Of a DNA stretch of 64,000 nt, positions 1,331 to 63,562 are shown piece after piece (position 1 is the first letter of the stretch; each line of letters opens with the position of its first letter). The notes under the pieces were generated by a model that worked only from the letters and a program-made list of their open reading frames with translations, searched no databases and had not been told where the DNA came from. Position numbers and translations under genes: made by a program. The DNA is from an uncultured Gemmatimonadales bacterium (GTDB taxonomy: Bacteria; Gemmatimonadota; Gemmatimonadetes; Longimicrobiales; RSA9): assembly GCA_963798085.1 (NCBI GenBank), contig CAWCRS010000008.1, positions 352,001-416,000 of the forward strand. The letters run 5' to 3'.

Positions 1331-3835
1331 GTGAAACTCCTCACCCCGATCCCTGAACTGCTCGCTCCCGCCGGGAGCCTGGACGCCGTCCGCGCCGCCA
1401 TCGCGAATGGCGCGAATGCCGTCTACCTGGGCGCGGAGCAGTTCAATGCGCGGGACGAGGGCGCGCAGTTCAGCATGGCCGATGTGGAGCAGGCCTGCCG
1501 GCTGGCGCACGCGCGGGGTGTGCGCATTTACCTCACCTGGAACATCCTCTTCAAGCCGGCCGAGCTGAAGGCTGCGCTGCTGCACCTGGGCGACTGCATC
1601 GACTGCGGCATTGACGCGGCCATCGTGCAGGACATGGGCGCGATCCGGCTGGTGCGGCAGCTCTATCCGCGGCTGGAGATCCACGGCTCGACGCAGATGA
1701 CGGTGCACGATGCGGCGGGTGCGCGCGTGCTGCACGAGCTGGGCGTGCAGCGCGTGGTGCTGGCGCGCGAGAACACGCTCGATGACATCCGTGTTATCCG
1801 CGAGGCGGTGCCGGAGCTGGGGCTCGAGGGTTTCGTGCACGGTGCGCTCTGCATCGCCTACTCGGGGCAGTGCTACATGTCGGGCATGATCTCCGAGCGC
1901 AGCGCCAACCGCGGCGCCTGTGCGCAGTCGTGTCGCAAGGACTACGTGCTGGGCGATGCCGACACGAGCGACGAGCTGGACCGCGGCTATCTCATCTCGG
2001 CGCGGGATCTGTCGGCGTGGGAGCATCTCGAAGCCATTGCGTCGGCGGGCATCCGCTGCCTCAAGATCGAGGGTCGCAAGAAGAAGCCGGAGTACGTGGC
2101 CACGGTGACGCGCACGTACCGCGACTTCCTCGATCGCGTGGCCGCGGGGGAATGGCGGCCGCCCACCGAGTCGGAAGTGCAGCCGCTGGTGCAGATCTTC
2201 TCGCGTGGCTTCACGGGCGGCATGTACGGCGGTCGCGCGGGTCGCGACTACGTGACGCGCAATCATCCGGACAATCGCGGCGCCGTGCTGGGCCACGTGC
2301 TGGGCATGGAGGGCAGAGAGCTGCTGCTCGCGCTGACCAGCCCGGTGGGTGTGGGCGATGGGCTGGGCTTCGAGCATCCGGATGGCGCGGCGCATGGTAA
2401 CACGGGGTTTGGCGTGACGCAGGTGCGCGATCTGGGGCAGCGCGATGGGCGCTATCGACAGGCGATCAATGCGGGTGCGCGCGTCCCCGAGGGCTGGGTA
2501 GTGGTGCGCTCGGCGCAGGCGTCGCTGCTGGAGCACGCGAGGGCATCGTTCGCGGGCGTCGCAGGGGTCGCGCCGAAAAGGACGCGGCTGGACGTGCGGG
2601 CCCGCGGCCACGCCGGCGAGGCGCTCGAGCTGACGTTCATGGCAGGCGACGATGCCAGTACCGTGGCCAGCACGATTCCACTGGCACTGGCGACGAAGCA
2701 TGGCCTGGACGGTGCCCGCCTGCGCGAGCAGCTGGGCCGGCTGGGCGAGACGCCGTTCGTGCTGGGGTCGCTCGATGCGAGCGGGCTCGAGACGGGCCTG
2801 TTCCTGCCCGTCAGCGTGCTGAACGATCTCCGCCAGCAGGCGGTGGCGGCCCTGATCGCGCGGCGCGCGCAGGCGGAGCGGGAGCGGCTGGGTGCGCGCG
2901 AGCAGGCCATTGATGCCGCGCTGAAACAGCGGGTTAGCGCGCACCGCCCGGCCCTGGACGACGTGCCGGGCGAGGCCGGGTTCCGACTGGTCGCGGAGGT
3001 TTGGCGCGTGGAGGACGCACAGGCCGCGGCCGATGCCGGCGCCACGGAGGTCTCGCTGGATCCGTTCCTGCGCCATCCGCCGGCGTCGGTGGCCCGGGTC
3101 CGTGCGCTGCGCGAGGCGCTGCACCCGAGAGGCATAACACTTCGTTTGCGACTGCCCACCATCGTGCGGCCGGAGGAACGTCCCACGCTGGACCGCTGGC
3201 TGGCGCTGGAAACGCCCCTCGTGGCCGGCCATGTCGGGCTGCTGGCGGAGCTGAGCAGAGCCGGACGCGACGTCGTCGCCGACTACGGTGTGAACTGCTT
3301 CAACGCACACACGGCCGCGGAGCTGTTCCGGCTGGGCGCACGCCGCATTGTGCTGTCCGTGGAGCTGACCGGCGAGGAGATGGTGCAGGTGGCACTGCCC
3401 TGGGCGGGCGCGGGCTTCGAGGTGTTCGTCTACGGCCGGCCCGAGGGCATGACCCTCGAGCATTGCGTGCTGTCCGCGGCCTTCGACCGCGAGCCCACCA
3501 CGTGTCGCGACCTGTGCGTGCAGAAGCATCCAAACGTCGTGTTGACGGATCCCGCGGGCTACGCCTTCCCCGTGGCGACGGACGCGGCCTGCCGTAATCG
3601 TCTGTTGCACTCGCGGCCGGTGGACGGGTCGGCGTATCTGCCCGGTCTCTGGCGCGACGGCTTCCGCAGTTACCGCCTGGTGTTCAACGTGCCGGGCGAT
3701 CCGGTGGCCGAGGTGACGGGCGCATATCGCATGCTGCTCGCTGCGCTGGCCGCAGGCGAGGCGGCGCCGGAGCGGGCGCTGCGGGCCGTGATCGGCCGGG
3801 AGTATACGCGCGGCCATTTCGCGCGGGCGGTCTGA
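1331..3835 (+). CDS. U32 family protein, RlhA-like rRNA hydroxylase architecture (U32 + DUF3656-like + second U32-like domain)
   Basis: PELLAPAGS, HGALCIAYSGQC, NRGACAQSCR, LKIEGR motifs, C-terminal TRGHF; GTG start at 1331. Confidence 0.85.
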   Translation: MKLLTPIPELLAPAGSLDAVRAAIANGANAVYLGAEQFNARDEGAQFSMADVEQACRLAHARGVRIYLTWNILFKPAELKAALLHLGDCIDCGIDAAIVQDMGAIRLVRQLYPRLEIHGSTQMTVHDAAGARVLHELGVQRVVLARENTLDDIRVIREAVPELGLEGFVHGALCIAYSGQCYMSGMISERSANRGACAQSCRKDYVLGDADTSDELDRGYLISARDLSAWEHLEAIASAGIRCLKIEGRKKKPEYVATVTRTYRDFLDRVAAGEWRPPTESEVQPLVQIFSRGFTGGMYGGRAGRDYVTRNHPDNRGAVLGHVLGMEGRELLLALTSPVGVGDGLGFEHPDGAAHGNTGFGVTQVRDLGQRDGRYRQAINAGARVPEGWVVVRSAQASLLEHARASFAGVAGVAPKRTRLDVRARGHAGEALELTFMAGDDASTVASTIPLALATKHGLDGARLREQLGRLGETPFVLGSLDASGLETGLFLPVSVLNDLRQQAVAALIARRAQAERERLGAREQAIDAALKQRVSAHRPALDDVPGEAGFRLVAEVWRVEDAQAAADAGATEVSLDPFLRHPPASVARVRALREALHPRGITLRLRLPTIVRPEERPTLDRWLALETPLVAGHVGLLAELSRAGRDVVADYGVNCFNAHTAAELFRLGARRIVLSVELTGEEMVQVALPWAGAGFEVFVYGRPEGMTLEHCVLSAAFDREPTTCRDLCVQKHPNVVLTDPAGYAFPVATDAACRNRLLHSRPVDGSAYLPGLWRDGFRSYRLVFNVPGDPVAEVTGAYRMLLAALAAGEAAPERALRAVIGREYTRGHFARAV

Positions 3836-3995
3836 GCTCCCGCCACCGCCGGTTGGCGGCCTCGCGCCGTGGCATTGGGGCGGGCGCTCGTCACGGACGC
3901 ATTGCGGGTGAACCCCGCACACTTGTCGCCAACCCGCCGCGCACGTCATGTGTCCAACAGCAAGCGCAGGAATCCCCCTTCCGAATGAGGCAATC

Positions 3996-6350
3996 ATGAG
4001 GTTCAGCACCGCCATTGTTGCGAGCGCGGGGCTCGTGTGCGTGCTGGTCGCCGGGCCGGCGGCCGCGCAGGGGTACGGCCAGGCCGTACTGGTATCGGGC
4101 AACGAGGTGCTGGTGGGCGAGTCGCTGTACACCACGCGGCCGGGCTACGTCTACATTTACCGCAAGTCGGGCAGCCGCTGGGTCGAGGCGACGAAGCTGC
4201 AGGCTTCGGATGCAGCGCCTAACGACCATTTCGGGCGCACGCTGACCCTTGCCGAGGGCGACCTGCTGGTGAGCGCGACCGTGGCGCGGCAGTCGGGCGT
4301 GCTGTACGTGTTCTCGCGTGATGGCGACAGCTGGCGCGAGACGGCAGCGCTGCTGCCCAGTGATGCGCACCCGCAGGGCTCGTTCGGGCGGGTGAGCGTG
4401 ACCGATGGGCACAGCGTGATGCTGTCCTCGTGGGCATCAGACTCCAGCCGGGGCGCGGTGTACGTGTTCGAGAAGCAGAACGGTGCCTGGCGCGAGACCG
4501 CGAAGCTGCGGGCCGGTGACGGCGAGCCCAACGACTGGTTCGGCTTCTCCATGGCGATCGCCGGCGACCGCCTTGCCATTGGCGCGAGCCGCCGGGAGCG
4601 CGGACGCGGAGCTGTGTACCTGTTCCGGCGCAGTGGCGGCAGCTGGCAGGAGACGGCCCGTCTCATGCCGCCCGACACGGCCGCTAACACGGGGTTCGGC
4701 TCGGCCGTCGCCTTCGCCGGGGATGCCCTGCTGATCAGCGCGCCGGGCGCGGACGGCTTCGTGGGCGCCATCTACGGCTATCGCGCGGATGCGAACGGCA
4801 CCTGGACGCAGGCCGCGCGCGTTACGCCTCCGGCCGGCACCACACCCAACAACACGTTCGGCTCCGTGCTGCAGACGGTGGGCGACGAAGTGTGGGCGGG
4901 TGCGCCGGGCATCGACACCGGGCGCATGTATCGCCTCACGAAGGCAGCGGATGGCAACTGGCAGAGTGTCGTGTACCTGGGTGCACGCGACCTGCAGCCC
5001 GGCGACGGCTTTGCGGGCGCGCTCGACGTGAACGGATCACTCGCGGTCGCCGGTGTCGTGGGAGACGACTTCGGTCTGGGCTCAGCCGTGATCTACGAGA
5101 AGAGCAACAACAACTGGTCGGAATCGGCCCGCCTGGTGACCGAGGTGAAGGGGCTGGATCCCATTGTCGGCAACAAGGTCGACTGCACGGGCGGCAAGGC
5201 CAGTCTGTACGACTGCGGCGATGTCGACATCATGTCGTTCCTGCCCGTGCAGCAGGTGGGCGGCGGGCGAGGTGTGCAGCTGAACGACCTGTGGGGCTGG
5301 ACCAATGCACGCACCGGCAAGGAGTGGGCGCTGGTGGGGCGTGTCGATGGCACGTCGTTCATCGACCTGAGCGATCCCAACCACCCGGTGTACGTGGGCG
5401 ATCTGCCACTCACGAAGGGCGCCCGGCCCAGCATCTGGCGCGACATCAAGGTCTACAGGGATCACGCCTACATCGTGTCCGATGGTTCCGGTCCACACGG
5501 CATGCAGGTCTTCGATCTCACCCGCCTGCGCAACGTGCCGCGTTCGAAGATGCCGATGACCTTCACCGAGGACGCGCACTACGACCACATCGCCAGCGCG
5601 CACAACATCGTAATCAACGAAGCGACCGGCTTTGCCTACGCGGTGGGCGCCAATTCCGGCGGCGAGACCTGCGGCGGCGGGCTGCACATGATCGACATCC
5701 GCGAACCCGCGAAACCGAAGTTTGCGGGCTGTTTCCAGGACACGCAGACGGGCATTCAGCGGACAGGCTACACGCACGATGCGCAGTGCGTCGTCTATCA
5801 CGGCCCGGACGCGAAGTTCAAGGATCACGAGATCTGCATGGGTGCCAACGAGACCATGCTGTCCATCGCCGACGTGACGGACAAGAGCAAGCCGGTCTCA
5901 CTGGCGCGCGCCGGTTATCCCAGCGTGGGCTATGCGCACCAGGGCTGGCTGGATGAGCAGCACGAGTACTTCTACATGGATGATGAAACCGACGAGATAT
6001 CGGGCAACATCCAGCACACGCGGACGCTGGTGTGGGATGTGAAGGACCTCGAGGATCCGGTGCTGGTCAAGGAGTATTTCGGACCCAGCACTTCGAGCGA
6101 CCACAACCTCTACGTGCGCGGCAACCTGGTGTACGAATCGAACTACGTCAGCGGCCTGCGCATCATCGACATCTCGAATCGCACGGATCCCAAGGAAGTC
6201 GGCTTCTTCGACACCGTGCCGGGCAATGATGCGCCGGGTTTCGACGGCTCCTGGTCGAACTACCCGTTCTTCGCGAGTGGCACGATCGTGGTCACGAGCA
6301 TGAAGGAAGGCGTGTTCTTCCTGCGCCGGCACACGCGCGCGGTGTCGTAA
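3996..6350 (+). CDS. Secreted choice-of-anchor B family protein (FG-GAP repeats + LVIVD-like propeller)
   Basis: Signal peptide; repeated FG/GAVYVF units; NDLWGW, WRDIKVY, HDAQCV, HQGW, DHNLYV, WSNYPFF. Confidence 0.8.
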   Translation: MRFSTAIVASAGLVCVLVAGPAAAQGYGQAVLVSGNEVLVGESLYTTRPGYVYIYRKSGSRWVEATKLQASDAAPNDHFGRTLTLAEGDLLVSATVARQSGVLYVFSRDGDSWRETAALLPSDAHPQGSFGRVSVTDGHSVMLSSWASDSSRGAVYVFEKQNGAWRETAKLRAGDGEPNDWFGFSMAIAGDRLAIGASRRERGRGAVYLFRRSGGSWQETARLMPPDTAANTGFGSAVAFAGDALLISAPGADGFVGAIYGYRADANGTWTQAARVTPPAGTTPNNTFGSVLQTVGDEVWAGAPGIDTGRMYRLTKAADGNWQSVVYLGARDLQPGDGFAGALDVNGSLAVAGVVGDDFGLGSAVIYEKSNNNWSESARLVTEVKGLDPIVGNKVDCTGGKASLYDCGDVDIMSFLPVQQVGGGRGVQLNDLWGWTNARTGKEWALVGRVDGTSFIDLSDPNHPVYVGDLPLTKGARPSIWRDIKVYRDHAYIVSDGSGPHGMQVFDLTRLRNVPRSKMPMTFTEDAHYDHIASAHNIVINEATGFAYAVGANSGGETCGGGLHMIDIREPAKPKFAGCFQDTQTGIQRTGYTHDAQCVVYHGPDAKFKDHEICMGANETMLSIADVTDKSKPVSLARAGYPSVGYAHQGWLDEQHEYFYMDDETDEISGNIQHTRTLVWDVKDLEDPVLVKEYFGPSTSSDHNLYVRGNLVYESNYVSGLRIIDISNRTDPKEVGFFDTVPGNDAPGFDGSWSNYPFFASGTIVVTSMKEGVFFLRRHTRAVS

Positions 6351-6368: not shown

Positions 6369-9300
6369 TCAGGACCCGCCTCCGCCGCGCAGCTGCACGG
6401 GCGTGAGGCGGGTCGGCACGGCCGCGGCGCGCTGCAACAGGTCCGCGAACCCGCCTGTCAGCAGCGTGTTGAGCTTGCCCACATCCTCTTCGAGCTGCGC
6501 GCCCAGGGCGTTCAGTTCGCGCTGCTGCGCCTCCGTGGGCGCGGCCAATGCCGCCTGCAATGAGCCATCCAGATCGAGGTAGCGGAACTTCGGCCCGCCG
6601 AAGCCGGGCCGGAAACGCGCGGCCAGCGAATCCAGGCGGGCCGTGACGTCGCTCATCAGCGGCGCGATCGAATCGTGCTGCGCCGCGTTGTTCTTCACGG
6701 ACTCCTGGATTGCCGCCTTCTCCTTCGACATCCCGTCCCACAGGCGGGATGCCGCCATGAAACCGCGCAGCAGCTCCTGCAGGCGCAGCTCAGCCGTGTG
6801 CCGAGCCTCGAGCGCCGGGCGGGGCGCGTTCACCCGCGGATCGGCGCGCACTTCCAGATTCTGCGACGCCGTGGCGCCCGCACCCTCGATGGTGACCGTG
6901 TAGTTGCCGGGCAGCACCCACGGCCCGCGCGGCGGCCCGAACCAGCCCTCATCCTGATCGGTCACGCCATCCACGCGCGCGTAGCGCAGGTCCCAGGAAA
7001 TGCGGTGCACGCCGCGGCTCGCGGATGACGTCAATGTGCGCACGGTCCGGCCCGCCGCATCGGCAATCGTGATGTGCATGCTGTCCGCGTTGTTCGTTGC
7101 CGTGGCGATCGTGTAGGTAATGAGCGCGCCTTCGGGCGGATTGGGTGCGGCGAAGGTACGTGCGCCCGGCATCGGCAGCATACGCTTCATGTACTGCTGC
7201 GTGGCCGCGCGGATGGGCGCGAGCGTGAGCGGCCGGCCCATGGTGGTGGGGTCGCCGTTCTCGATCAGGGTCGCATCATCCAGCACAATGAAGCCTCGCC
7301 CGTGTGTGGCGAGGATCAGGTCGTCGGTCTTCTCGTTGTAGAGCACGTCATCGATGCGCACGCGCGGCACAGTGCCGCGCACCAGCTGCCAGTTGCGGCC
7401 GCCGTTCCAGGTGACGTAGAGGCCGAACTCGGTGCCGGCGAAGAGCAGGTCGCGGTTGCGCGGATGCTCGGCCAGCGCGCGCACCACGGTGCCGGCGGGC
7501 AGGTCGCCGGCAATGGACGTGAAGGAATTGCCGCCATCGGTGCTGCGGAAGATGTACGGCATCATGTCGTCGTCGTAGTGGCCATCGAAGGTGACGTAGG
7601 CGATCTGTGTGCCGAAGCGGGAGAGCAGCACGCGGCTCACCCAGCGCGGCGCGGGCAGCCGGAAGCGGTCGCCGAAGTTACGCCAGGTCTCGCCGCCATC
7701 GGTGGTCATCTGCACGTTGCCGTCATCGGTGCCCACCAGCAGCGTGCCCGCCGCGAGCGGCGACTCGGAGATCGTCGTGATGGTGCCGTACCACTCGATG
7801 CCATCGTCGCGGGACAGGGTAGTCGAGTCGCGGGTCAGGCCCATGATGGGCAGCTTCTTCCAGTCCTGCTGGCGGGACAGGTCGGGCGAGATCACCTTCC
7901 AGGTCAGACCGGCATCGCGCGTCTCGAACAGCCTGTTACCACCGTAATAGATGATGCCCGGATCGTGCGGCGAGCGCAGCTGCGGCGTGTCCCAGTTGAA
8001 GTGGTACTGCTCTTTCGGATCGTCGGGCACGGGACGCACGCCCTGCTCCTCGCGCGTCTGCAGGTCCACGTGGTAGGCGCGGCCGTTCTGCGAGTTGGCG
8101 AACACGTAACGCGGGTTGCGCAGGTCCGCGGTGGCGTAGAAGCCATCGCCGTACGCGGTGTTGATCACGTCGTCGCCGGTGATGCCGATGAGCGCCGCGG
8201 TGCGCGAGGGCATGGCCCAGGAGCCGTTGTCCTGCGCGCCGCCGAACAGCCAGTAGGGGTCGCGCTGATCCACGTCCACGTCGTAGAACTGGCCGATGGG
8301 GATGTTGTTGATGTAGTCCCAGTGGCGCGCGCCATCGTACGTGAAGTGCAGTCCGCCATCGTTGCCCAGCATCATGTGGTCGGGATTTCCGGGGTCGATC
8401 CATAACGCGTGATTATCGACATGGATGCGTTCCGCCGTGCTGTCCGTGGTGAACGTCTTCCCGCCATCAATGGAGAGGTGCACGTTGGTGTCCAGCATCC
8501 ACAGGCGGTCCGGGTGCTGGGGATCCACGCGCAGCTGCGAGTAGTACATGGCGCGCGGATCGAGCGTGCTGGTGCGGCGCCAGGTCGCGCCCCGGTCATC
8601 GGAGCGGAACACGCCGCCGTCATGGTTCTCGATTGCCGCATACACGGTGTTGGGGCTGGAAGCGGCAATGGCGATGCCGATGCGGCCGGTGGGTCCGGCG
8701 GGCAGGCCGTTCGTGAGGCGCTCCCATGTGTCGCCGCCATCCAGCGAGCGCCACAGCCCGCTGCCCGGTCCGCCGCCCACGAAGCCGTAACCGGCGCGGC
8801 GCCGCTGGTAGCTGGCGGCGTAGACAATGCGCCCGTCAGGATCGAGGGCGACGTCGGTCACGCCCGTGTTCTCGTCGATGGTGAGGACCTTCTGCCAGGT
8901 CCGGCCGCCATCCCGCGTGCGATAGAGGCCGCGCTCCGCGTTGGGTCCGAAGAGATGCCCGAGCGCCGCGACGAACACGGTGTTCGGGTCGCGCGGATGG
9001 ATGACAATGCGGCCGATGTGCTGGCTGTCGCGCAGACCCATGAACGTCCAGGTGGTGCCACCGTCGAGCGAACGGTAGACGCCATCGCCCCAGGTCGTGC
9101 TCTGCCGGTTGTTGGGCTCGCCCGTGCCCACCCACACGATGTTGGGATCCGAGGGCGCAATCGCGATGTCGCCGATGGAGATGGAGCCGCCGTACGCGTC
9201 GAAGACGGGCGTCCAGGTCACGCCGTTGTTGAGGCTGCGCCAGACACCGCCGCCGGCGGCGCCGACGAAGATCGTCGTCGGCCGCGAGGGCACGGCCTCG

Positions 9301-11757: not shown

Positions 11758-12561
11758 GCCTGAGCCAGGCCCGCCTGCGGGCGCGCCGTGCGCCGCGGCG
11801 GAGCGGTGAACCAGGTCGCGCAACACCGTCAACTCGTGTTCGGTGATGGGCGGTGTGATGGCCAGCGGATGGCGCACGCGCAGCGGCCAGCCGGTCGCGG
11901 CGATTGCCGCATCGACCGTGACGCCCGGGTGCAGCGTGGTCAGCTCCAGCTCGCGCGTCACGGGATGCGGTTCGAGCACGCCCAGGTCCGTGATCACGCG
12001 GGAGGGTCCACCGCCGCGCAGGCCCGCGCGCGTCCGCGCGTCGCCGCCATTGAGGAAGCCGGCACTGGTGATGAAGTCGACGCGCTCGACGAGGGTGCGG
12101 GTGCTGTGTCGCACGATCACGAAAACCTCGCGGGCGTGTGCCGCGATTTCCGGCGCGCCGCCGCCGCCCGGCAGGCGGACACGCGGCGAGTCGTACGGAC
12201 CGATCACGGTCGTGTTGATGTTGGCGAAGCGGTCGAGCTGCGCCGCGCCCAGGAAGCCCACGTCAATGCGGCCGGCCTGCAGCCAGTAGGCGAAGATCTC
12301 GGGCACGGAGACGACCTCGTCGGCGGTCTCGGCCAGCTCCGCATCACCAATGGACAGCGGCAGCACGTCCGGCTTCGCCCCGATCGTGCCCGACTCGTAG
12401 ATCAGCAGCAGGTCGGGCGCGTGCAGGCGTCTGGCCAGGTTGGCGGCAATGCTGGGCAGGCCGATGCCGACGAACACCAACATGCCGTTAGTGAGCGCGC
12501 GGGCCGCCACGATGCTCATCACCTCGTCCGCCGACGGCTGGAGCCGATCGCTTTCACTCAT
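11746..12561 (-). CDS. CoA-transferase beta subunit (GctB/CatJ family)
   Basis: FVGIGLP, LIYESG catalytic Glu, GFLGAAQLDRFANINTT, RLPGGGGA; overlaps the alpha-subunit stop. Confidence 0.85.
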   Translation of the reverse strand: MSESDRLQPSADEVMSIVAARALTNGMLVFVGIGLPSIAANLARRLHAPDLLLIYESGTIGAKPDVLPLSIGDAELAETADEVVSVPEIFAYWLQAGRIDVGFLGAAQLDRFANINTTVIGPYDSPRVRLPGGGGAPEIAAHAREVFVIVRHSTRTLVERVDFITSAGFLNGGDARTRAGLRGGGPSRVITDLGVLEPHPVTRELELTTLHPGVTVDAAIAATGWPLRVRHPLAITPPITEHELTVLRDLVHRSAAAHGAPAGGPGSGSGG

Positions 12562-14217: not shown

Positions 14218-14871
14218 TCAGGAGCGGGCCCGCACCAGCACGCCGTCCATCAGCGCCTGCGTGAAGCGCAGCTCATCGGCATTCACGGTGTGGCCCATGC
14301 CGGCGTAGATGCGCTTCGTCACGGTCGCGCCCATGCGCTCGAACACGGCCGCGCTCTCCTCCACGCGCTGTTCCGGGATGTGCGGATCGATGTCGCTGCA
14401 ACCGAGGAACACGGCCGCGCCAGCGAAATCGCCCGCCTGATTCCAGGTGGTGCCCGCCGGCCCGATCAGGCCGCCACTGTACAGGATGAGGCCGCCCAGC
14501 GGGCCCGCGTGGCGCACGGCGAACTCGCCCGACAGGCAGGCGCCCTGGGAGAAGCCGAGCAGCATGATCTGCTCGCGCAGAACGCCGGCGGCGATGACGT
14601 CGTCCAGAGTCTGCTCCAGCACACTCAGTGCGGAGGACAGGAACGGCTCGTTGCTCGCGATCTCGCTCATGAAGCCGTTCGGGTACCAGGTGTTTCCCGC
14701 AGCGGAAGGCGCGAGGTACGTGAAGGCGGGCCGGTTCAGCGCGTCGCACAGATCCAGGATGTTGCGGGCCGAGGCATTGCGGCCGTGCACCATGATCATG
14801 ACCGGGCTGCTGCCCAGCGGCGGGCCCGCACTAACAAGCGGTTGGCCGGCGTGCGGTCCGCGGGCGCTCAT
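14218..14871 (-). CDS. Phospholipase/carboxylesterase family alpha/beta hydrolase
   Basis: HGR, GFSQG nucleophile, DPHIP, GMGH; ATGA overlap with the upstream dioxygenase. Confidence 0.85.
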   Translation of the reverse strand: MSARGPHAGQPLVSAGPPLGSSPVMIMVHGRNASARNILDLCDALNRPAFTYLAPSAAGNTWYPNGFMSEIASNEPFLSSALSVLEQTLDDVIAAGVLREQIMLLGFSQGACLSGEFAVRHAGPLGGLILYSGGLIGPAGTTWNQAGDFAGAAVFLGCSDIDPHIPEQRVEESAAVFERMGATVTKRIYAGMGHTVNADELRFTQALMDGVLVRARS

Positions 14872-18077: not shown

Positions 18078-20511
<2,434 letters not shown>

Positions 20512-50797: not shown

Positions 50798-51068
50798 CGG
50801 CAACGAGACGGTTACGCCGGCCGGCGGCCGCGGCACCATCCTGGAGGCGGCCAATCTGCACCGTACGGTGCAGAAGCTGATCCGCGACGGTCTGGTCGAG
50901 GTGACGACGAAGCGGCCGCATCCCACCCGGGACGATCCCCGCCGCCGCGACTACGCGATCACGAAGCTGGGTCGTGCCGTGGCGGCCGCGGATGCCGTGC
51001 GCATGCGTTCGCTGGCGGAAGCGGCGGAGGCGAGGAAGCTGGTATCGCGGCCCGGTCGGGTGACATGA
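50798..51068 (+). pseudogene. 5'-truncated PadR remnant
   Basis: ANLHRTVQKLIRDGLV..DPRRRDYAITKLGR matches the PadR C-half; HGY helix and a proper start are missing. Confidence 0.6.
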
Positions 51069-51477: not shown

Positions 51478-51713
51478 CACCGCAGCGAATGCGGAGAGCG
51501 CGGAGGAACGGCGTCAGAGGTTAACAGATTGTTATCCTTTACGGATAGGGATGTGGCTTTCGCTCAGCACGACGATCGCCGCCAATGGAATCCCGGATCG
51601 AGCAGCCGCAGCCACTATCCTCGAGCAGGAAGCTCCTGCAGGCAACGAAGCATGCTTCACCGCGGATAAGCACGCAGCGCCTCCCCCGCGTCCTCCGCGC
51701 TCTCTGCGGTGAG
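51478..51713. repeat. Inverted pair of REP-like repeats (GCAGAGAGCGCGGAGG type), one inside the cobU 3' end
   Basis: 51491-51506 versus reverse complement of 51692-51707: 15/16 match. Confidence 0.45.
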
Positions 51714-52235
51714 AGGAAGAGGCCGGCCGCTGAGGAGTAACCAGGCGTGGCGGGCCTCGGCGGCCACGCGCTGATTGGCGCGGCCGGCGGCGTCGCGGAA
51801 CCAGCGGCCCAGGCCGGTGGGCGGCACCACACCCATGCCGACTTCGTTGGTGACGACAATGAGCGTGCCGGCGCGCGCGGCGGCGGACCGGAGCAGCGCG
51901 CTGATTTCGCGGTCGACGGCGGCGTGCACGGCCTCTTCGCCTTCCGGTTCCAGCCGTAACACGGTGTTGGAGACGAGGAGTGTCAGGCAGTCGAGCAGCA
52001 GGACGGGCGTCGTCGCCTGCTCGATACACTGGCCGGCACCGGCGGTCAGCTCAATGGTGTGCCAGGCGGCGGGGCGGCTGGCGCGGTGGCGGGCAATACG
52101 TGCCTGCATCTCGGGATCGCTGGCCCGGGCCGTGGCGAGAAAGGTCACAGCGTCGCCGCCCATGCGCACGGCCAGCCGCTGCGCAAAGTCGCTCTTGCCG
52201 CTGCGTGCGCCGCCGGTCACGAACAGGATGTCCAT
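51657..52235 (-). CDS. cobU: Adenosylcobinamide kinase / cobinamide-phosphate guanylyltransferase
   Basis: GGARSGKS, EMQARIARHR, LLDCLT, VTNEVGMG, FRDAAGRANQ. Confidence 0.95.
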   Translation of the reverse strand: MDILFVTGGARSGKSDFAQRLAVRMGGDAVTFLATARASDPEMQARIARHRASRPAAWHTIELTAGAGQCIEQATTPVLLLDCLTLLVSNTVLRLEPEGEEAVHAAVDREISALLRSAAARAGTLIVVTNEVGMGVVPPTGLGRWFRDAAGRANQRVAAEARHAWLLLSGRPLPLTAESAEDAGEALRAYPR

Positions 52236-53332: not shown

Positions 53333-54006
53333 GTGGCGGGCTCCTGGTCAGTTCGTTCACGGAACCGCAGCACTGCGGCAGGTGGGATTTCCATCAGCCG
53401 CGCCTGCCGGAATAACACGCCTGTCAGCAGACCGAGCAGCACACGCATCGGTCCGCCGTGCGTGAAGGCAATGACGGACCGGGCGGTTGCAATGTCGTGC
53501 AGCCAGTCCGCGCAGCGCCCGGTCAGCCGGCTCAGCGACTCGCCTTCCGGCGGCGATACCGCTTCCGGCTGACTCAGCCATGCGCCGTAGCAGTCAGCGA
53601 ATCGTTCCGCGCATTGCGCGTGCGTGAGGCCTTCGAAGCGGCCGAAATCCAGTTCACGCAGGCGAGAATCGGGCAAGCTGACGCAATCCGGCAGCGCCAG
53701 CGCCGCCGTCTGCCGCGTTCTCGCCATATCGCTCGTGAAGACAAGAGCGCCGGCAGCGGCCAGCGGTTCCAGCACGCCTTGCAGCGCCGCCGCCTGCGTC
53801 CGGCCTTCCGGGAGCAGCGCACCATCGGTTGCGCCCTGGTAGCGGCGATCGGCGTTGAGCGCGGTGGTGCCGTGGCGCACGAGTACAATGCTGCGCAGCG
53901 TCGGCCTTGCGAACTCCGGTGTCAGCAACCAGCCGCCGCCCGTTGCCGTCGGCGCCAGGCTGCCCGCCGCCGGGCGGGGCAGGGATCGCGTTCCGCGCGG
54001 CGTCAT
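53329..54006 (-). CDS. cobC: Histidine phosphatase, probable alpha-ribazole phosphatase
   Basis: LVRHG, LRELDFGRFEG, THGG; lies between cobS and cobT. Confidence 0.8.
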   Translation of the reverse strand: MTPRGTRSLPRPAAGSLAPTATGGGWLLTPEFARPTLRSIVLVRHGTTALNADRRYQGATDGALLPEGRTQAAALQGVLEPLAAAGALVFTSDMARTRQTAALALPDCVSLPDSRLRELDFGRFEGLTHAQCAERFADCYGAWLSQPEAVSPPEGESLSRLTGRCADWLHDIATARSVIAFTHGGPMRVLLGLLTGVLFRQARLMEIPPAAVLRFRERTDQEPAT

Positions 54007-54716
54007 TGGAGGCACGCGAAGACCAGGAGTACGGTGCTTTCCGCGGCCAGTCCTGCGGCGCCGTGCACATCGCCGGTGACGCCGCCGAAGCGACGCGAAA
54101 GCCACCCGGCGAGCAGCACGCCTGCCGCGCTGCCGATGGGCGCCGCAACCAGCTCGCGCGGACCGGCCAGCGGCAGCAGTCCGCCGAGGCACACGAGAGC
54201 CACGACGGTTGCGGGCAGGAGGCGCGCATCACGGGCAAAGGCCGCACCCAGTCCATCCCTGCGCGCGGGTCGCAGGCGGGCGACCGTGAGGGTCATGGTC
54301 CAGCGCCCGGCGATGGCGGCGATGGGCGCCGCGACTGGCGGCACCTGTGCGAGTGCAGAGAAGCGCACCAGCAGCAGCACTAACAGCGCGTTCACAGCGT
54401 GGGCGCCCACGTGCGGATCGCGCAGGATCGCGAGTCGCCGCTCGCGGCCGGCAACGGCGAAGGCCGCATCCGCGCAGTCCATCCAGCCATCCTCGTGCAG
54501 CCCGCCGGCCAGCAATGCCCACACGCCCACGGCCAGCGCCGCGCGTGGCAGCGCGGGAACGGGCAGCAGCAGGACGCCGGCCACGAGGCCGCCAACGCCC
54601 AGGCCCACGAGCGGGAACCACATCAATGCAGCGGCCGGCGCGAGCGCAGCCTCGTGCTCGCTCCACGCCAGGGGCAGCACCGTCAGGTGTCGGATTGCGC
54701 CGCGCAGCGCACTCAC
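54003..54716 (-). CDS. cobS: Adenosylcobinamide-GDP ribazoletransferase (cobalamin synthase)
   Basis: FPLVG, GGLHEDGWMDCAD, ILRDPHVG, GGVTGDVHGA. Confidence 0.92.
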   Translation of the reverse strand: MSALRGAIRHLTVLPLAWSEHEAALAPAAALMWFPLVGLGVGGLVAGVLLLPVPALPRAALAVGVWALLAGGLHEDGWMDCADAAFAVAGRERRLAILRDPHVGAHAVNALLVLLLVRFSALAQVPPVAAPIAAIAGRWTMTLTVARLRPARRDGLGAAFARDARLLPATVVALVCLGGLLPLAGPRELVAAPIGSAAGVLLAGWLSRRFGGVTGDVHGAAGLAAESTVLLVFACLQ

Positions 54717-55765: not shown

Positions 55766-57924
55766 GACTGAAGCACTCCTGCGATGGAAGCGGCTGCGGC
55801 AAAATCCGGGGTCAGGCGTACGCCGAGGCGCAGCACCCGGCCCGGTTCGGGGAATCCGAAGATCAGCGAGGCCTTTTCGTCGAGCAGGCGGTCGACGCGC
55901 AGCTCGAAGCGGGCGCGCCAGGCACCCAGGGGAACCGTGTGGGCGAGCGCGCCGTCCAGCGTAAAGAAGCCGGGCAGCAGGTTCACAGGCGTGGGCGCGG
56001 TCGTACGTTCGCCGGTGTAGCGCAGGTCTGCCTGCAGCTCGCTCGCGGCCGGTCGGAAGGCGAGGCTCAGCGACCCGGTGTGCCGCGGACGGTACGCGAT
56101 CTGCACGCCGTCATCGCCTGCGCCGCGGTCATACGTGGCGCGCGCCAGCGTCCACGCGCCCGTGAAGCGCAGCCTGCGATCGCGCGAGTCCAGTGTGCCA
56201 CCCAGCTCGAGGCCGGCCCGCTTTGCATCGGCGTTGTACGGCCGCCATATGAACCGGTAGTCGGGTGCCCAGAGGATCATGCCGTGCACGTCGCTCCGCC
56301 ACGCGCTGGTACGCAGCGTCAGCAGCCAGCCGCGCGCATTCGCGATGAGCTGCGCGCCGGCCTCCACTTCGCCGGGCACGCGCTCGGCGCGCAGGTCGGG
56401 GTCCGGCTCCACCCCCACCGCATCGCGGAAGAAGCGATCCGCCATGGTGGGTGGCGTGAAGCTGCTGCGCTGCGTCACGTGCAAGGCGAGACCGCCGCGT
56501 GCGAACGCCAGTGTCAGCGCATGGCTGAAGAACCAGGCACCGCCCAGCGCAGCGCGGTCCGTGCGCAGCTGCGCCTCGAGACTGAGCCCACGCACTCCCG
56601 CCAGCGCGCTCGCGCCACGCAGGTAGAAGCCGGCATTGAGCAGGGAAGTGGGCGCGTTCTGCGCGAGTGCTGTGCTGCGCAGCGCCTCATGTCGAAGCTC
56701 GCTGCCCAGTCCCAGAGACCGGCCGTGCGGCCATTGTCGTTCACCCGTGGCACGCACCAGCAGCGCTGTCACACGGGTGGTGTCGTCGTACGGCTGGCCG
56801 AAGGGCGGCTGCGCGTCGTGGTGGCGGATGCGCTCGCGCGCGCCGCTCAGCAGCAGCGACAGGGCGAGGTCGCTGGTGGCGCGCCGCCAGGAGGCGGAGG
56901 CGCGGTCGTCCAGCACATCCTGGCGCGCCGCGGGCGACGTCGCGTAACTGCGGCCGGGCAGGCCTCGCCGCAGCACGTCGTGTCCGCCGCGCACATCCAG
57001 GGCCCCACCAAGCAGGGTGCCACGGACGCCACCGTGCGCCTGGAGTGCGCGAACATCTGCGTTAGCACGCCGGGCGGCGCCGCCGCCGGCTTGCGCCGGC
57101 AGATCGAAATCGAAGGCACCACTCTGCCGCCGCCCACCCGCGCCCAGTGTCCACGACGTGCGCGTGCCGCCGCTCCACGAAAGCGCAGCGTCCGCCGTGC
57201 CCAGTGTGCCGCCGCCCAGGCTCAACTCGCGGTCCATGCCGGCGGCGCCGCGCGATTCGATCAGCACCACGCCTCCGCTGGCGCGGCCGCCCCACGCGGC
57301 GGAGCGCGCGCCGGGCAGCACTGTGATGGAAGCAATGCTGGCGGCACTGACGCGCGTCAGATCGGCCTGGCCGGTCACGGGATCGTTGAGCGGCACGCCG
57401 TCGACGAGCACCAGAACCGAGCTTTCATTGGCGCCGCGGATGGAGAGGTACTGCGGGCCGCCCGGCCCCGTCGTGTGCAGCACCACACCGGGCAGACTCT
57501 TCAGCGCATCGGCCGCCGTGCGCGCTCCCGCCCGCTGCAGGTCGGCGCGCTCCAGTCTGTAACCGTCAGTTAGAGAAGCGGCGGCGCGGGCGACGACGCC
57601 GGGCAGCGTGACCGGCTGCGGATCGAGCCGCACGTCCACGCGGACTTCCTCGCCCGGGCGCACATCCACGCTCACTTCGCGCGCGGCGTAGCCGAAGCCC
57701 TCGACACGCAGTGGGCGCGTGCCCGGGTCCATGGCGGGCAGCCGGAAATGTCCGGCGGCATCCGTGCGCACGCCCGGCTCATCGCCCAGCCGGACACTGG
57801 CGCCGGCGACCGGAAGGTGCGTCGTCGCATCGACGACGGTTCCGGTCACCACGCCCGGCTGCTGCGCGCGCAGCGGTGCGTGCAGCAGCAGAAGCAGCAG
57901 ACCGAGCGTGCGCGCGGGTGTCAT
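55762..57924 (-). CDS. btuB: TonB-dependent receptor, probable cobalamin transporter
   Basis: N-terminal carboxypeptidase-regulatory-like domain, plug SIRGA..VLVDGVPL, SAAWG..GGVVLI, YRPRH, PGR C-terminus; riboswitch-controlled. Confidence 0.8.
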   Translation of the reverse strand: MTPARTLGLLLLLLHAPLRAQQPGVVTGTVVDATTHLPVAGASVRLGDEPGVRTDAAGHFRLPAMDPGTRPLRVEGFGYAAREVSVDVRPGEEVRVDVRLDPQPVTLPGVVARAAASLTDGYRLERADLQRAGARTAADALKSLPGVVLHTTGPGGPQYLSIRGANESSVLVLVDGVPLNDPVTGQADLTRVSAASIASITVLPGARSAAWGGRASGGVVLIESRGAAGMDRELSLGGGTLGTADAALSWSGGTRTSWTLGAGGRRQSGAFDFDLPAQAGGGAARRANADVRALQAHGGVRGTLLGGALDVRGGHDVLRRGLPGRSYATSPAARQDVLDDRASASWRRATSDLALSLLLSGARERIRHHDAQPPFGQPYDDTTRVTALLVRATGERQWPHGRSLGLGSELRHEALRSTALAQNAPTSLLNAGFYLRGASALAGVRGLSLEAQLRTDRAALGGAWFFSHALTLAFARGGLALHVTQRSSFTPPTMADRFFRDAVGVEPDPDLRAERVPGEVEAGAQLIANARGWLLTLRTSAWRSDVHGMILWAPDYRFIWRPYNADAKRAGLELGGTLDSRDRRLRFTGAWTLARATYDRGAGDDGVQIAYRPRHTGSLSLAFRPAASELQADLRYTGERTTAPTPVNLLPGFFTLDGALAHTVPLGAWRARFELRVDRLLDEKASLIFGFPEPGRVLRLGVRLTPDFAAAASIAGVLQS

Positions 57925-58892
57925 CGCGGCGTCCAGCCGGGATGCAGCGCCCCGGCCAGCAGCCGGGCCGCATCGGCCAGGCGTGGGCCGGGGCGGCTGA
58001 ACAGATCGGTGTCGACGATGATGATGCGGCCGCTGCGCAAACCGCGCAGGCCGCGCCAGCCGGGCAGCTGCGCGAGCGCCGCGGGGGAAACGACCGGCGT
58101 GCTTCCGCGGCTCGGGATGACCAGAACATCCGGATCGCGGCGCACGATTTCCTCCATGGAAACTTCCGGCCATGGCGTGTGCGCATTGGCGAACACATTG
58201 CGTCCGCCCGCGATCGTGATCAGCTCATCGACGAAGCTGCCGGCGCCGGCCGTCTGCGCCGGCGAATGCCACAGCAGGAACAGCACGGAGGGACGGGGCC
58301 TGCCGGCCACGCGGGTGCGCACGCTGTCCAGGCTGGCGCGCAGCGCAGCTGCCAGCGAGTCGGCGCGCCGCTCGACACCGAGCAGCACGCCCAGCCGGCG
58401 GACGGTGGTGAAGACATCCTCAATGCATTGCGGATCGCTGATGTACACAGCGGCGCCGCTGGCGTCTAACACGTTTGTTAGGGCAGGGGTGCGCGCTTCC
58501 GGCCCCAGCACCACCAGATCGGGCTGCAGCCGCAGCACCGCCTCGGGTGTGGGTGACAGCGCGCTGCCGAACGATGGCAGAGGGAACAGCGCCGGGTCGG
58601 GATCGAATGCGGTGCGCGCCAGGAGCCGCGAGGACGCGCCCAGGCTTGCGAACAGCTCGGTTACGGATGGCGACAGCGAAACCACGCGTCCTGCCGGCGC
58701 CGCGAGCTGCACTCGCCGCCCCGCATCGTCCGTAACCTGCAGCGGCGGCACGCCGCCGTGGGCCGCGTCCGCACACGAGACTGTCAGCGCCAGCAGCAAC
58801 CACAGCTTCCCGCCCGCAGAGAAACGGAATCCCCGTTCCTCCACGAGGGGAAGAACGGGGATTGCGCCGGCATGATTTCGCCGGTAAAGCAT
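57921..58892 (-). CDS. btuF: Cobalamin-binding protein (helical-backbone solute-binding protein); start probably later than 58892
   Basis: VTDDAGR, RVVSLSPSVTE, SFVDELITIAGGRN, SRPGPRL. Confidence 0.85.
   Translation of the reverse strand: MLYRRNHAGAIPVLPLVEERGFRFSAGGKLWLLLALTVSCADAAHGGVPPLQVTDDAGRRVQLAAPAGRVVSLSPSVTELFASLGASSRLLARTAFDPDPALFPLPSFGSALSPTPEAVLRLQPDLVVLGPEARTPALTNVLDASGAAVYISDPQCIEDVFTTVRRLGVLLGVERRADSLAAALRASLDSVRTRVAGRPRPSVLFLLWHSPAQTAGAGSFVDELITIAGGRNVFANAHTPWPEVSMEEIVRRDPDVLVIPSRGSTPVVSPAALAQLPGWRGLRGLRSGRIIIVDTDLFSRPGPRLADAARLLAGALHPGWTPR
58828..58863 (-). terminator. Riboswitch expression-platform hairpin (terminator and/or SD sequestrator)
   Basis: On the minus strand AATCCCCGTTCTTCC pairs with GGAGGAACGGGGATT, followed by CCGTTTCTCT. 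Confidence 0.5.
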
Positions 58893-59887: not shown

Positions 59888-60759
59888 ATGAAGTACGCGT
59901 GGGGCGTGGTGGTGTGCGCGGCAGCGGTGGCAGCGGCGTGTGGCGAGAAGCCGGCGCCGGCAGGGCAGAATGGGGCGGCGCAGGGCGGCGCCATGCAGAT
60001 GGAGCCGCGCATTGCACTGCAGCCGACGGCGGCGGACTCGCTGCCGCCGGCGGTGCTCGGGCTGGCGGCGCCGCCGCAGGGGAAGGCGGTGCACTACTTC
60101 CCGCAGGATTCCCTGACACAGGGTTATCTGGCGCTGCCGGAGGGTGCGGGTCCGTTTCCGGCGGTGATCCTGATTCACGAGTGGAACGGTCTGGTGGATC
60201 GCGTGCGGCAGGTGGCGGATGCGCTGGCAGCGGAAGGCTACGTCGCGCTGGCCGCGGACCTCTACTCGGGGAAGACGGGCGGCAATCCCCAGGAGAATGT
60301 GGCGTTGATGAACGCCGTGTGGGCGGATTCGACGCGCATGATCGAGAATCTGAATGCGGCGGTTCAGTTCCTGCGTGCGCGTTCCGATGTCACGGGCAAG
60401 ATCGGCGCAATGGGCTGGTGCTTCGGTGGCGGCATCGCGCTTTCCTTCGGGCTGGACGGTGTGAACCACGAGGCCACGGCGATGTTCTACGGCCGGCTGG
60501 TGGATGATCCCGCGCGGCTGAAGAGGATCACGCACGAGGTGTACGGCACGTTCGCGGGCAAGGACCAGAGTTTCCGCCTGACAAGGTGCGGCAATTCGTG
60601 GCCGCGCTGCGGGCCGCGGGCATTCCCAACGACGTGCACATCTACGACGACATGCAGCACGGCTTCTGGCTGTGGGTGGACCAGGATTCGACGCGACGCG
60701 CGCCGGCGCTGGACGCGTGGCAGCGGCTCAAGACCTACCTCAAGCGGACGCTCAGTTAG
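59888..60759 (+). CDS. Dienelactone hydrolase family lipoprotein; apparent frameshift near 60570
   Basis: Lipobox AAAC, IHEWNG, nucleophile GWCFGG; continues as FPPDKVRQF..HGF..AWQRL in the next frame. Confidence 0.85.
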
Positions 60760-60837: not shown

Positions 60838-62205
60838 ATGCAGAGCAGCCTTCTCAGGCTCCCGATTGATGCGGAGCTGCACGAATATCGCCTTTCCGAG
60901 GTCATCTCCGCGCTTTCGTACGCCCTCGATCTGACGGAAGGACAGCCGCCGGGGCACACGCTTCGGGCCACGGCCATCGGCATGCGTTTCGCCGATGAGC
61001 TGGGGATGACCGATGGCGCGCGCGCCTCGCTGTTCTACGCGCTGCTGCTCAAGGATGCCGGCTGTTCCGCGAATGCGGCGGACGTCGCGGACCATTTCGG
61101 TTCGGATGATCGGGTGCTCAAGCGCGACATGAGCACGATGAACTGGTCCAGCACACCGCAGTGCGCGGTATACGCGTGGCGCAACGCGGCCCGGGGCCGT
61201 TCGCTGCTCAGCCGGCTGCGCCACTTCACACGCATCGCATCACGCGGTCACGGGCTGGTGCGCGAGCTGCTGCGCGTGCGCTGCTCGCGCGGCGCCGACA
61301 TTGCCATGCGCCTCGGTTTCCCCGAGACGACGTCGGAAGCGGTGCGCTGTCTGGATGAGCACTGGGATGGCCGGGGTGGTCCTGTGGGCATGGCAGGCGA
61401 CGAGATTCCGCTGGCCGCACGCATCGCCAACCTGGCGCAGACTCTCGAAGTCTTCCTCACCGCGAAGGGTCCGGAAACCGCGCTCGCGGTGGTGCGCGCA
61501 CGCCGCGGCGCGTGGTTCGATCCCGCGCTGGTGGATCGCTGCCTCGACTGGCGGCGCGATCAGGCGTGGTGGAACGACCTGCTGGACGAAGAGCTGGCAG
61601 CGCGTGTGCAGGCGCTGGAGCCGAGCGAGCACGCGCGCATCCTCGATGACGCGGGACTCGAGCGCGTGGCCGAGGCTTTTGCGGAAATCATTGACGCCAA
61701 GAGTCCGTTCACGTGGCACCACTCGACCAATGTGGCGCACTTCGCCGTCGGTGTGGGCGACGAACTGGGCCTCGACCCACGTTCGCTCCGCCTGCTCAAG
61801 CGTGCCGGCCTGCTGCACGACGTGGGCAAGCTGGGCATCTCGAGCCGCATCCTGGACAAGGCGGCGCCGCTGACTGCGGAAGAGCGGGCCGAAGTGGAGC
61901 AGCACCCGCGCTTCACGTGGTCGATCCTGCGACGCGTGGGCTCGTTCCGCGAATTCGCGTGGACTGCGGCGCTGCACCACGAGCGCATCGATGGCTCGGG
62001 CTATCCGTGGGGTCTGGGTGGCGAGGATCTGGACGTGGAGGCGCGCACGCTGGCCATCGCCAATGTCTGGGAGGCCCTGACCGCTCGGCGGCCCTATCGG
62101 GACGGCCTGCCTGTCGAGGACGCGCTGCGCATCATCCGCAAGGATGTAACGCTGCGCTATGATAACCGCGTGTTCGAGGCGCTCGAATCCTGGGTGGGAT
62201 ACTGA
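60838..62205 (+). CDS. Tandem HD-domain / HD-GYP phosphohydrolase
   Basis: N-terminal degenerate LLKDAGC and EHWDG; C-terminal LLHDVGK and HHERIDGSGYP, RRPYR. Confidence 0.88.
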   Translation: MQSSLLRLPIDAELHEYRLSEVISALSYALDLTEGQPPGHTLRATAIGMRFADELGMTDGARASLFYALLLKDAGCSANAADVADHFGSDDRVLKRDMSTMNWSSTPQCAVYAWRNAARGRSLLSRLRHFTRIASRGHGLVRELLRVRCSRGADIAMRLGFPETTSEAVRCLDEHWDGRGGPVGMAGDEIPLAARIANLAQTLEVFLTAKGPETALAVVRARRGAWFDPALVDRCLDWRRDQAWWNDLLDEELAARVQALEPSEHARILDDAGLERVAEAFAEIIDAKSPFTWHHSTNVAHFAVGVGDELGLDPRSLRLLKRAGLLHDVGKLGISSRILDKAAPLTAEERAEVEQHPRFTWSILRRVGSFREFAWTAALHHERIDGSGYPWGLGGEDLDVEARTLAIANVWEALTARRPYRDGLPVEDALRIIRKDVTLRYDNRVFEALESWVGY

Positions 62206-62712: not shown

Positions 62713-63477
62713 ATGCTGACTGCGATCACGCGGGCGGTGAGCCGATCGCTGGCGGAATGCGAGCTGACCTGGCTCGAGCGCGTGCCCATCGACGTGGCGC
62801 TCGCCATGCGCCAGCACGACGCCTACGCGCAGGCGCTCGAGCGACAGGGACTGCGCGTACTGCGCATGCCGGCCGAGGATGGGCTGCCTGACGCCGTGTT
62901 CGTGGAGGACCCGCTGCTGGTGCTGGATGAAGTGGCGGTCGCGCTGCGCATGGGTGCAGTCAGCCGGCGCGCGGAGGTAGACTCGCTGCTGCCCGTGATC
63001 GGCGAGTACCGCGACGTCATACGCATGCAGCCGCCGGGCACGATCGATGGCGGCGACATCGTGCGCATCGGACGACAGCTGTTCGTGGGGCAGTCGAGCC
63101 GCAGTGATGCGCCGGGAACGGCGCAGCTGGCCGCCATCGTGGCGGGCTTCGGCTACACGGTGGTGCCCGTCGCCGTGCGCGGCTGCCTGCACCTCAAGTC
63201 GGGATGCACATCGCTGGGTGATCGCGTGCTGCTCAATGCCGGCTGGATCGATGCCTCGCCGTTTCAGTCATTCCACCCGCTGCACGTTCCCGCCAGCGAG
63301 CCGGCCGCCGCCGACGTGCTGACGCTGCCCCACACGCTGCTGCTGCCCGCATCCTTTCCGGCCACCGCGGAGCTGCTCCGCGCGACCGGCCATTCCGTGA
63401 CGACAGTGGATGTCTCGGAGCTGCAGAAGGCCGAGGCAGGTGTCACCTGCATGAGTGTGCTGTTCGACGCCAGCTGA
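62713..63477 (+). CDS. Dimethylarginine dimethylaminohydrolase (amidinotransferase superfamily)
   Basis: PDAVFVED, DGGD, HLKS, catalytic Cys in GVTCMS. Confidence 0.9.
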   Translation: MLTAITRAVSRSLAECELTWLERVPIDVALAMRQHDAYAQALERQGLRVLRMPAEDGLPDAVFVEDPLLVLDEVAVALRMGAVSRRAEVDSLLPVIGEYRDVIRMQPPGTIDGGDIVRIGRQLFVGQSSRSDAPGTAQLAAIVAGFGYTVVPVAVRGCLHLKSGCTSLGDRVLLNAGWIDASPFQSFHPLHVPASEPAAADVLTLPHTLLLPASFPATAELLRATGHSVTTVDVSELQKAEAGVTCMSVLFDAS

Positions 63478-63562
63478 GCGCACCACCGCGAACCGGCGAG
63501 ATCGCACGCGCCGGCTTCGCCGCGCCGGAACTAACAGTCTGTCAGGTGACGGCCCGCGCGCG

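Follow-up and report, generated by a model that had tools for sequence, protein, structure and literature searches.

The split palindrome TAAC-N5/6-GTTA is scattered in thousands of copies through the genome of an uncultured Gemmatimonadales bacterium (GenBank assembly GCA_963798085.1; Longimicrobiales, RSA9). It first drew attention in a stretch of 64,000 nucleotides, positions 352,001 to 416,000 of contig CAWCRS010000008.1, here called the window, when the letters were read without database searches (the sequence-only reading). The motif is a real, undescribed and species-restricted member of the broad class of hyper-abundant motifs built by point mutation, and by analogy its behaviour is most like that of an uptake or recombination signal. 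Two length scales, an exclusion zone between sites and a halo of raised GC content around them, are new here. The reading favoured, at a probability of roughly 0.45, is that a dimeric protein recognises the motif, which would have spread by drive as an uptake or recombination signal similar to the DNA uptake sequence (DUS) of Neisseriaceae and uptake signal sequence (USS) of Pasteurellaceae, or to the highly iterated palindrome HIP1 of cyanobacteria.

Abundance and anatomy of the motif

By the definition of the sequence-only reading, the window holds 22 sites with a five-base spacer (N5) and 7 with a six-base spacer (N6). All 22 N5 and all five N6 sites that it had listed are present, none displaced by more than one base; the N6 list was correct but short by two, at 50801 and 58650. 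Its rough estimate was 1-2 chance N5 sites; a fifth-order Markov null gives, in 40 simulations of 64 kb, means of 0.9 N5 and 0.8 N6 sites and maxima of 4 and 3. When AAC-n-GTT with a flanking T or A is counted in the window, peaks occur at n=5 and n=6 only. With one mismatch allowed anywhere in the motif the window contains 38 sites, 31 of them within predicted genes (gene calls are from our own hexamer scorer, which returns 4,915 genes and 80% coding DNA).

The same pattern extends over the whole genome, labelled G000 (6.23 Mb in 12 contigs, ∼67% GC). The preference for two spacers is confirmed there: the perfect N5 form occurs 322 times and the perfect N6 form 83 times, against 1-5 copies for each of the 29 remaining spacers from 0 to 30. 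One-mismatch forms number 2,040 for N5 (157 expected) and 501 for N6 (171 expected), two-mismatch forms contribute ∼2,100 further excess copies, and sites with at most one mismatch total 2,946, or 0.47 per kb. Shuffling synonymous codons within genes (n=10), a check that the sequence-only reading had proposed, leaves 2.5 N5 and 3.8 N6 perfect sites in coding DNA, where 214 and 63 are observed. The use of rare codons that it had remarked on is likewise genome-wide, with 627 of 1,065 TTA codons (59%) and 88 of 350 TAA stops lying in sites. Among leucine codons that follow TAAC-N5-G, 132 of 337 are TTA, compared with 598 of 96,254 elsewhere, and the force acting per site is by this measure strong. 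Because most TTA codons belong to the motif, analyses of codon usage or of regulons would be misled by it.

Density is flat over all large contigs at ∼30 per 100 kb under a strict definition, the contigs being unordered on the origin-terminus axis. The motif had been called both too frequent and too intragenic for a normal regulon; an iterated genome-wide motif is indeed no normal regulon, but there is no preference for genes, the density being 0.43/kb within them and 0.61/kb outside. Genes with low GC at third codon positions (GC3) are poorer in sites (0.28 vs 0.47 per kb).

The half-sites form a ranked series: TAAC, TAAT, AAAC (mostly after C), TAAG, TAAA, CAAC, TGAC (mostly after C), TATC and GAAC, with TCAC not tolerated. 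The consensus is thus graded, as for a binding energy, and holds no invariant base. Spacers vary, and flanks are unique save at one duplicated locus. Opposite arm positions do not covary (82 paired vs 87 expected, of 322 sites), suggesting that a symmetric protein recognises the site in double-stranded DNA; a hairpin or single-strand site is rejected on the same result. Separately, the direct repeat TAAC-N7-TAAC has 30 copies genome-wide against 0-7 at other spacers and is perhaps the site of a separate regulator.

Origin of the sites and the question of sequencing error

Alignments indicate that the sites arose via point substitution. The congener G001, of which 278 kb were read, gives 30 alignments over 110 kb at 71% identity; in these, the differences at sites are mainly third-position base substitutions, a few of them in poorly aligned stretches. 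When genes are aligned to the proteins of a second genome, G488, a gap lies within three codons of 10 of 306 sites (3.3%), the background being 3.2%. With no excess of insertions or deletions and no shared flanks, an origin as insertions or scars is rejected. Amino-acid identity is ∼6 points lower at sites than far from them, in-frame stops are avoided, 11 of the 13 stops carried by sites coincide with the end of the ortholog, and TTA codons in sites are usually two changes away from the ortholog's codon.

The sequence-only reading had itself allowed that the sites might be systematic base-calling errors, and the assembly does carry such an error: on contig forward strands CAATG outnumbers CATTG (9,082 vs 6,654) and CATCG outnumbers CGATG (16,122 vs 13,802). 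This corresponds to ∼2,400 strand-biased CGATG-to-CAATG changes over the whole assembly, which create false Asp-to-Asn replacements; examples in the window lie at 23650 and 24449, and also at 20303, 25243 and 34213. It is probably a methylation-linked long-read consensus error, pointing to a CGATG/CATCG methyltransferase. The motif is distinct from this error. In forward-strand genes, Asn codons of the error class align to Asp 136 times and to Asn 128 times, whereas AAC codons in sites align to Asn in 65 of 109 cases and to Asp in 10, near background. Motif variants are nearly strand-symmetric, the largest skews being those of GAAC (212 vs 163 and 89 vs 60). The avoidance of in-frame stops, the stops at ortholog ends, the two-step changes to TTA and the related motif in G488 are equally unlike base-calling error, which is largely refuted and hardly credible as an explanation, even though one contig has G at 26841. 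As a side observation on short words, CGATC/GATCG is ∼40% rarer in G000 than in the G001 and G488 samples.

The contig with that G comes from run X1, has a depth of 2.4 and differs inside a perfect N6 site. Another X1 contig, spanning the site at 33928, differs in one letter of 421. X1 is perhaps the source sample, so its contigs are not independent evidence. The organism is present at low depth in one DNA sequencing run, and none of the RNA runs among the sequencing runs listed holds it.

Two length scales around the sites

At distances up to ∼600 bp, sites avoid one another. The density of site pairs relative to random is 0.23 at 20-60 bp, 0.52 at 150-250 bp and 0.84 at 400-500 bp, and reaches 1 by 800 bp; an exponential fit gives a decay length of 334 bp. 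Long gaps are near Poisson, with a coefficient of variation (CV) of 0.92 and lengths up to 16.7 kb. There is no helical phasing, and no clear kilobase or long period in three contigs (top peak 7.1 vs an expected maximum of 6.3) by a test cruder than the one published for HIP1.

The second scale is one of base composition. Fourfold-degenerate positions within 100 bp of a site are 1-1.5 points richer in GC (z up to 7.7 against 30 shifted nulls). Once genes and codon families are stratified, synonymous positions have odds of A/T of 0.79-0.86 up to 200 bp from a site and of 0.98 at 500-600 bp, and the exponential decay length is 214 bp; within ∼300 bp the odds ratio is 0.82, with a standard error of 0.014 once error-prone contexts are removed. 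The halo persists when all sites with up to three mismatches are masked and when gene interiors only are used as a control for position in the gene. It is absent around lone half-sites, around wrong-spacer controls and in the orthologous columns of G488. It is seen for C/T and G/A alike and not for C/G, on both strands and equally across codon-bias classes, a combination expected from conversion bias.

The main rival to a drive by exchange is a chromosome-binding protein, which bears directly on these scales. A dimer of a nucleoid or chromosome-maintenance protein would nucleate at each site and spread over, or organise, a few hundred bases; weak direct selection would maintain one site per patch, and the covered DNA would suffer fewer GC-to-AT changes. 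A single patch size would then cover both exclusion and halo. A split palindrome that tolerates two spacers is typically bound by a cytoplasmic dimer, the density is flat over contigs, and the drop in identity at sites suggests that a coding cost may be paid. There is, however, neither helical phasing nor a kilobase period, and the near-Poisson long gaps imply that full coverage is not enforced. The CGATG-type error, a probable methylation trace, is no rarer near sites, so no shielded zone is seen, and two separate gains of an architectural protein would be required (see below). On this balance the chromosome-binding protein is a serious rival but somewhat unlikely.

Distribution among Gemmatimonadota

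The motif has a very narrow distribution, as the comparison with related genomes suggested by the sequence-only reading makes clear. Counts of TAAC-N5-GTTA in a further 619 genomes from the phylum single out G488 alone (46 vs 16 for a reversed-pattern control). A broader pattern occurs 311 times in G000 and 325 times in G488, with no comparable excess in the 71 other family genomes (of 73) or in 400 order genomes. Counts are weak in G508 (15 vs 5 for the control), G528 (12 vs 5) and G126 (10 vs 4), and two mild outliers that were sampled, G020 (186 kb read) and G494 (121 kb read), have no spacer peak. The unpublished genomes G179 and G458 are among the negatives, and no claim depends on those two alone. 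In its own right, the 121-kb sample of G494 (L197-L203) contains strong 8-base-period repeats with AGT/ACT and GTG/CAC.

G488 has a dialect of its own, RTAH-N7-DTAY, found 493 times against 82-126 at other spacers in a sample of 1.82 of 4.6 Mb (∼40% of the genome), in which a clear N6 form is not seen. The congener G001 retains no residue of the motif in its sample, where one-mismatch N5 sites number 5 and other spacers give 2-8. In a five-taxon tree of 2,057 residues, G488 groups with the motif-free G431 (support 100) and G000 with the motif-free G001 (support 85). Each carrier is thus paired with a motif-free congener, and two independent gains are the simplest reading. Sites of G000 and G488 coincide in 11 of 234 cases against 2.2 expected under a crude model, so some shared history is possible, and both convergence and old sites would fit. 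A search of metagenome contigs for close relatives gave three loci only, at 33-34% identity.

The search for a reader

The 154 non-syntenic proteins common to G000 and the 40% of G488, 15 of which were scanned in Pfam, include no candidate for the reader or for a receptor specific to the motif; one shared non-syntenic protein is also present in the motif-free congener and was discarded. The integron integrase, LysR, LexA, the LexA-TadA fusion, the type I system and the family-wide N6 methyltransferase were considered by name, and none tracks the motif by presence. LysR, with its T-N11-A boxes, is rejected, since G000 has no match to HTH_1 and G488 only one, below the cut-off. The LexA SOS box is rejected as well, the lexA and recA promoters sharing another direct repeat. 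That repeat, TTCGG-N6/7-TTCGG, lies upstream of lexA in two genomes (G000:C7 near 1102900; L157) and of recA (G000:C7 near 1216900), and is a candidate SOS box for the family. A fusion of a LexA-type helix-turn-helix (HTH) DNA-binding domain to a TadA-like deaminase lies beside tRNA-Gln (G000:C7:1436755-1437484; L172:9063-9758); its HTH occurs in 65 of the 73 genomes of the family and the halo shows no bias towards a TA context, and it too was set aside. A reader may have originated by a change of specificity in a family-wide protein.

Such a change enters the next rival, in which the motif is a modification-linked entry point for repair or nicking, in the manner of MutH and GATC or of Elhai's methylation-directed model for HIP1. 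Repair over patches a few hundred bases long would fix site-creating changes and shift base composition. A halo that depends on distance, together with exclusion, suits a repair patch; MutS- and MutL-like genes are present; and a methyltransferase of the family-wide N6 type (∼1,100 residues) could vary in specificity among species. The copy in G000 has 1,122 residues and adjoins a small gene and a helicase-like gene (G000:C1:262757-269680). One low-depth contig also has another base in place of a site's first A (26841). The lack of any invariant base is unlike a modification target, however, and the methyltransferase family occurs in 64 of the 73 genomes compared within the family. The type I system is frameshifted within a recent low-GC island, and its HsdS domain occurs in 16 of 73 genomes. 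Motif variants, moreover, are strand-symmetric, unlike the CGATG error of the assembly. We therefore regard the repair entry as improbable, and the methyltransferase-linked target suggested by the sequence-only reading is weakly supported, in that neither an invariant base nor a methyltransferase tracking the motif was found.

Tyrosine recombinases offer a different mechanism, in which the sites would be pseudo-sites of an integron integrase or Xer-type enzyme, TAA|N7-8|TTA, seeding Holliday junctions and short conversion tracts. The geometry resembles that of attC boxes and the genome carries an intact integron integrase with an attC array, yet six integrase-positive relatives have 1-5 copies of the motif, G488 has a related motif and no integrase over the cut-off, with half-sites that drop the AAC triplet, and the flanks are unlike the genome's own attC boxes. 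The chance that such pseudo-sites explain the motif is slim. The integron itself (L001 and G000:C1:447485-464000) comprises the integrase, attC sites of 91-125 bases and toxin-antitoxin-like cassettes. A further integrase-like tyrosine recombinase, L069 (G000:C12:7881-9030), has an extra N-terminal domain and atypical codon usage, and fragments of similar genes occur in G488.

A proposed drive by exchange

In the favoured reading, a protein with two-fold symmetry would bind double-stranded DNA at two half-sites that resemble TAAC and are separated by 5 or 6 bases, as the anatomy of the motif suggests. DNA bearing a site would be favoured in horizontal exchange between conspecifics, through more uptake, protection or recombination, and an allele in which point mutation creates a site would displace the site-free allele. 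Sites would go on accumulating until the drive is balanced by coding cost and mutation, as proposed for DUS and USS. The exchange unit would be short: a second site less than ∼600 bp away shares the fragment and gains little, which would produce the exclusion zone, and frequent conversion near sites, if biased towards GC, would lift synonymous GC and produce the halo.

A force that is large per site, takes no account of strand or gene and brings diminishing returns within a few hundred bases suits a drive by biased exchange. The lower density in low-GC3 genes also counts in favour, ComEA is present, beside pilB, and DprA- and ComM-like genes are presumably present too, judging by signature patterns. 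[quoted passage not shown]

Several points weigh against an exchange drive. The reader protein was not found in the search described above, and ComEA is not specific to carriers, being present in the three motif-free genomes tested. Known uptake signals are non-palindromic and family-wide, whereas the motif here is a split palindrome missing from a congener. Genes with an ortholog in the 40% sample of G488 are not richer in sites (0.42 vs 0.44 per kb in other genes), unlike DUS in core genes. The halo is not replicated around G488's own sites, where the odds ratio is 0.966 and shifted nulls span 0.93-1.06 (468 sites, ∼75 of them background, in 40% of the genome), and exclusion in G488 is weak, with 41 pairs under 450 bp against 51 expected. 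The implied tract of 300-600 bp is at or below the shortest figure in the range of 573-1,734 given for Neisseria (PMC2397512), and one study found a link between GC and recombination to be clear in only one of ten species (PMC4866539).

A bolder proposal, tentative and on the doubtful side, is that a horizontally gained dimeric reader made two Longimicrobiales species, independently, into sequence-selective recombiners, adding a third signal chemistry beside DUS/USS and methylated HIP1. If this were true, the exclusion zone and halo would together preserve the length of the exchange tract (300-600 bp) like a fossil ruler and provide fine-scale evidence of GC-biased gene conversion in a bacterium.

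Sites in the window

The genes that host sites in the window are unrelated: they encode a U32 peptidase, two MacB/FtsX permeases, CobU, a TonB-dependent receptor, an aldose epimerase and an HD-domain protein, among others. Perfect N5 sites lie between genes at 51522..51534 and in the TonB-dependent receptor gene at 57560..57572. Perfect N6 sites lie near a gene 5' end at 26840..26853 (the site with G at 26841 in the low-depth contig), over the predicted start of a MacB/FtsX permease gene at 35536..35549, between genes or at a gene edge at 40901..40914, and in a periplasmic binding protein gene at 58467..58480. The perfect arms described earlier at 51522 and 58466 are as stated. The permease example of rare codons stands with a reservation, as the 35536 site overlaps the start codon of our caller (35541) and is maybe not wholly coding.

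N5 sites with one outer mismatch occur in the genes for the U32 peptidase (2398..2410), an FG-GAP repeat protein (4685..4697), a Vps10/BNR protein (7926..7938), a CHAT-domain protein (41857..41869), the aldose epimerase (47329..47341), the second permease (48984..48996), cobU (51957..51969) and the HD-domain protein (62163..62175), and within further genes at 2924..2936, 3135..3147, 12478..12490, 20738..20750, 23617..23629, 30138..30150, 37137..37149 and 54381..54393; those at 14832..14844 and 27249..27261 are between genes or at a gene edge. The MacB/FtsX permease gene holds an N5 site at 33928..33940, spanned by the 421-base X1 contig, and another, with one outer mismatch, at 34937..34949. 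N6 sites with one outer mismatch lie in the TonB-dependent receptor gene (57051..57064), directly after a stop (50801..50814) and in the periplasmic binding protein gene (58650..58663), the last two being those missing from the earlier list.

Also absent from that list, all within genes, are the N5 variants TAAC..ATTA (8403..8415), TAAC..GGTA (20403..20415), TAAT (43641..43653), TATC (50701..50713) and TGAC (60114..60126), and an N6 GTCA variant (53413..53426). An N6 TGAC variant lies in the U32 peptidase gene (1783..1796), and an N5 GCTA variant in the HD-domain gene (62147..62159) forms a rare close pair with the 62163 site. Two sites between convergent genes had been read as CTGAC/GTCAG variants: the one at 29445 is TGAC-N5-GTCA with two mismatches (29446..29458), and the other is TAAC-N5-GTCA, a GTCA variant (63532..63544). 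Elsewhere in the genome, a tRNA array (G000:C5:189593-193300) packs 22 genes into 3.7 kb.

Comparison with known systems

The literature searched, from which most subscription papers fall outside, contains neither this motif nor any such motif for Gemmatimonadota. Hyper-abundant motifs of the HIP1 and DUS type are partly unexplained, and to these the present case brings two length scales that can be measured. The exclusion and halo statistics are applicable to HIP1 and DUS, where they would separate recombination drive from protein architecture, and two carriers with motif-free congeners allow a small comparative screen for the reader gene.

Sites of the matS/MatP and nucleoid-occlusion type number tens of copies and are confined to chromosome domains. 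They are gapped palindromes bound by a dimer, as is proposed for the motif here. The motif differs in its thousands of copies, flat over contigs; the matS-like form of the nucleoid-organising site put forward by the sequence-only reading is not supported, and a nucleoid-protein site is kept as the rival weighed above. Integron attI/attC boxes share AAC and GTT triplets 5-6 bases apart, but the motif has no hairpin, cassette, RYYYAAC flank or link with integrase presence.

The sequence-only reading also offered uptake-type or HIP1-like sequences, the right class of interpretation. Like HIP1 (GCGATCGC) and the alternate HIPs of cyanobacteria, the motif is a hyper-abundant palindrome within and between genes; those palindromes are linked to transformation and recombination (10.1101/2024.09.10.611283, PMC13756078). 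HIP1 is an octamer, exact and ungapped, that has cognate methyltransferases (PMC4390886) and a period of 18-94 kb (PMC5861425). The motif here is gapped and degenerate, with one-mismatch N5 forms exceeding perfect ones (2,040 vs 322), and has no invariant base, no long period detected and no methyltransferase tracking it by presence. As it is not an exact contiguous word of the HIP1 kind, and as an uptake role is suggested by analogy, it is assigned to neither family.

The likeness to DUS and USS is closest in behaviour: about one copy per 1-2 kb, a graded consensus, an origin by point mutation (as for USS), fewer copies in atypical DNA as judged here by GC3, a spacing tied to fragment length and species dialects (PMC7811141, PMC2397512). 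Unlike them, the motif is a split palindrome with two spacers, confined to single species, with no core-gene excess seen. Depletion in atypical DNA appears when genes are divided by GC3 and not when they are divided by ortholog presence in the 40% G488 sample, at the densities given above. The motif shares with DUS and USS hyper-abundance throughout the genome, origin by point mutation at permissive positions, and competence machinery, here not specific to carriers.

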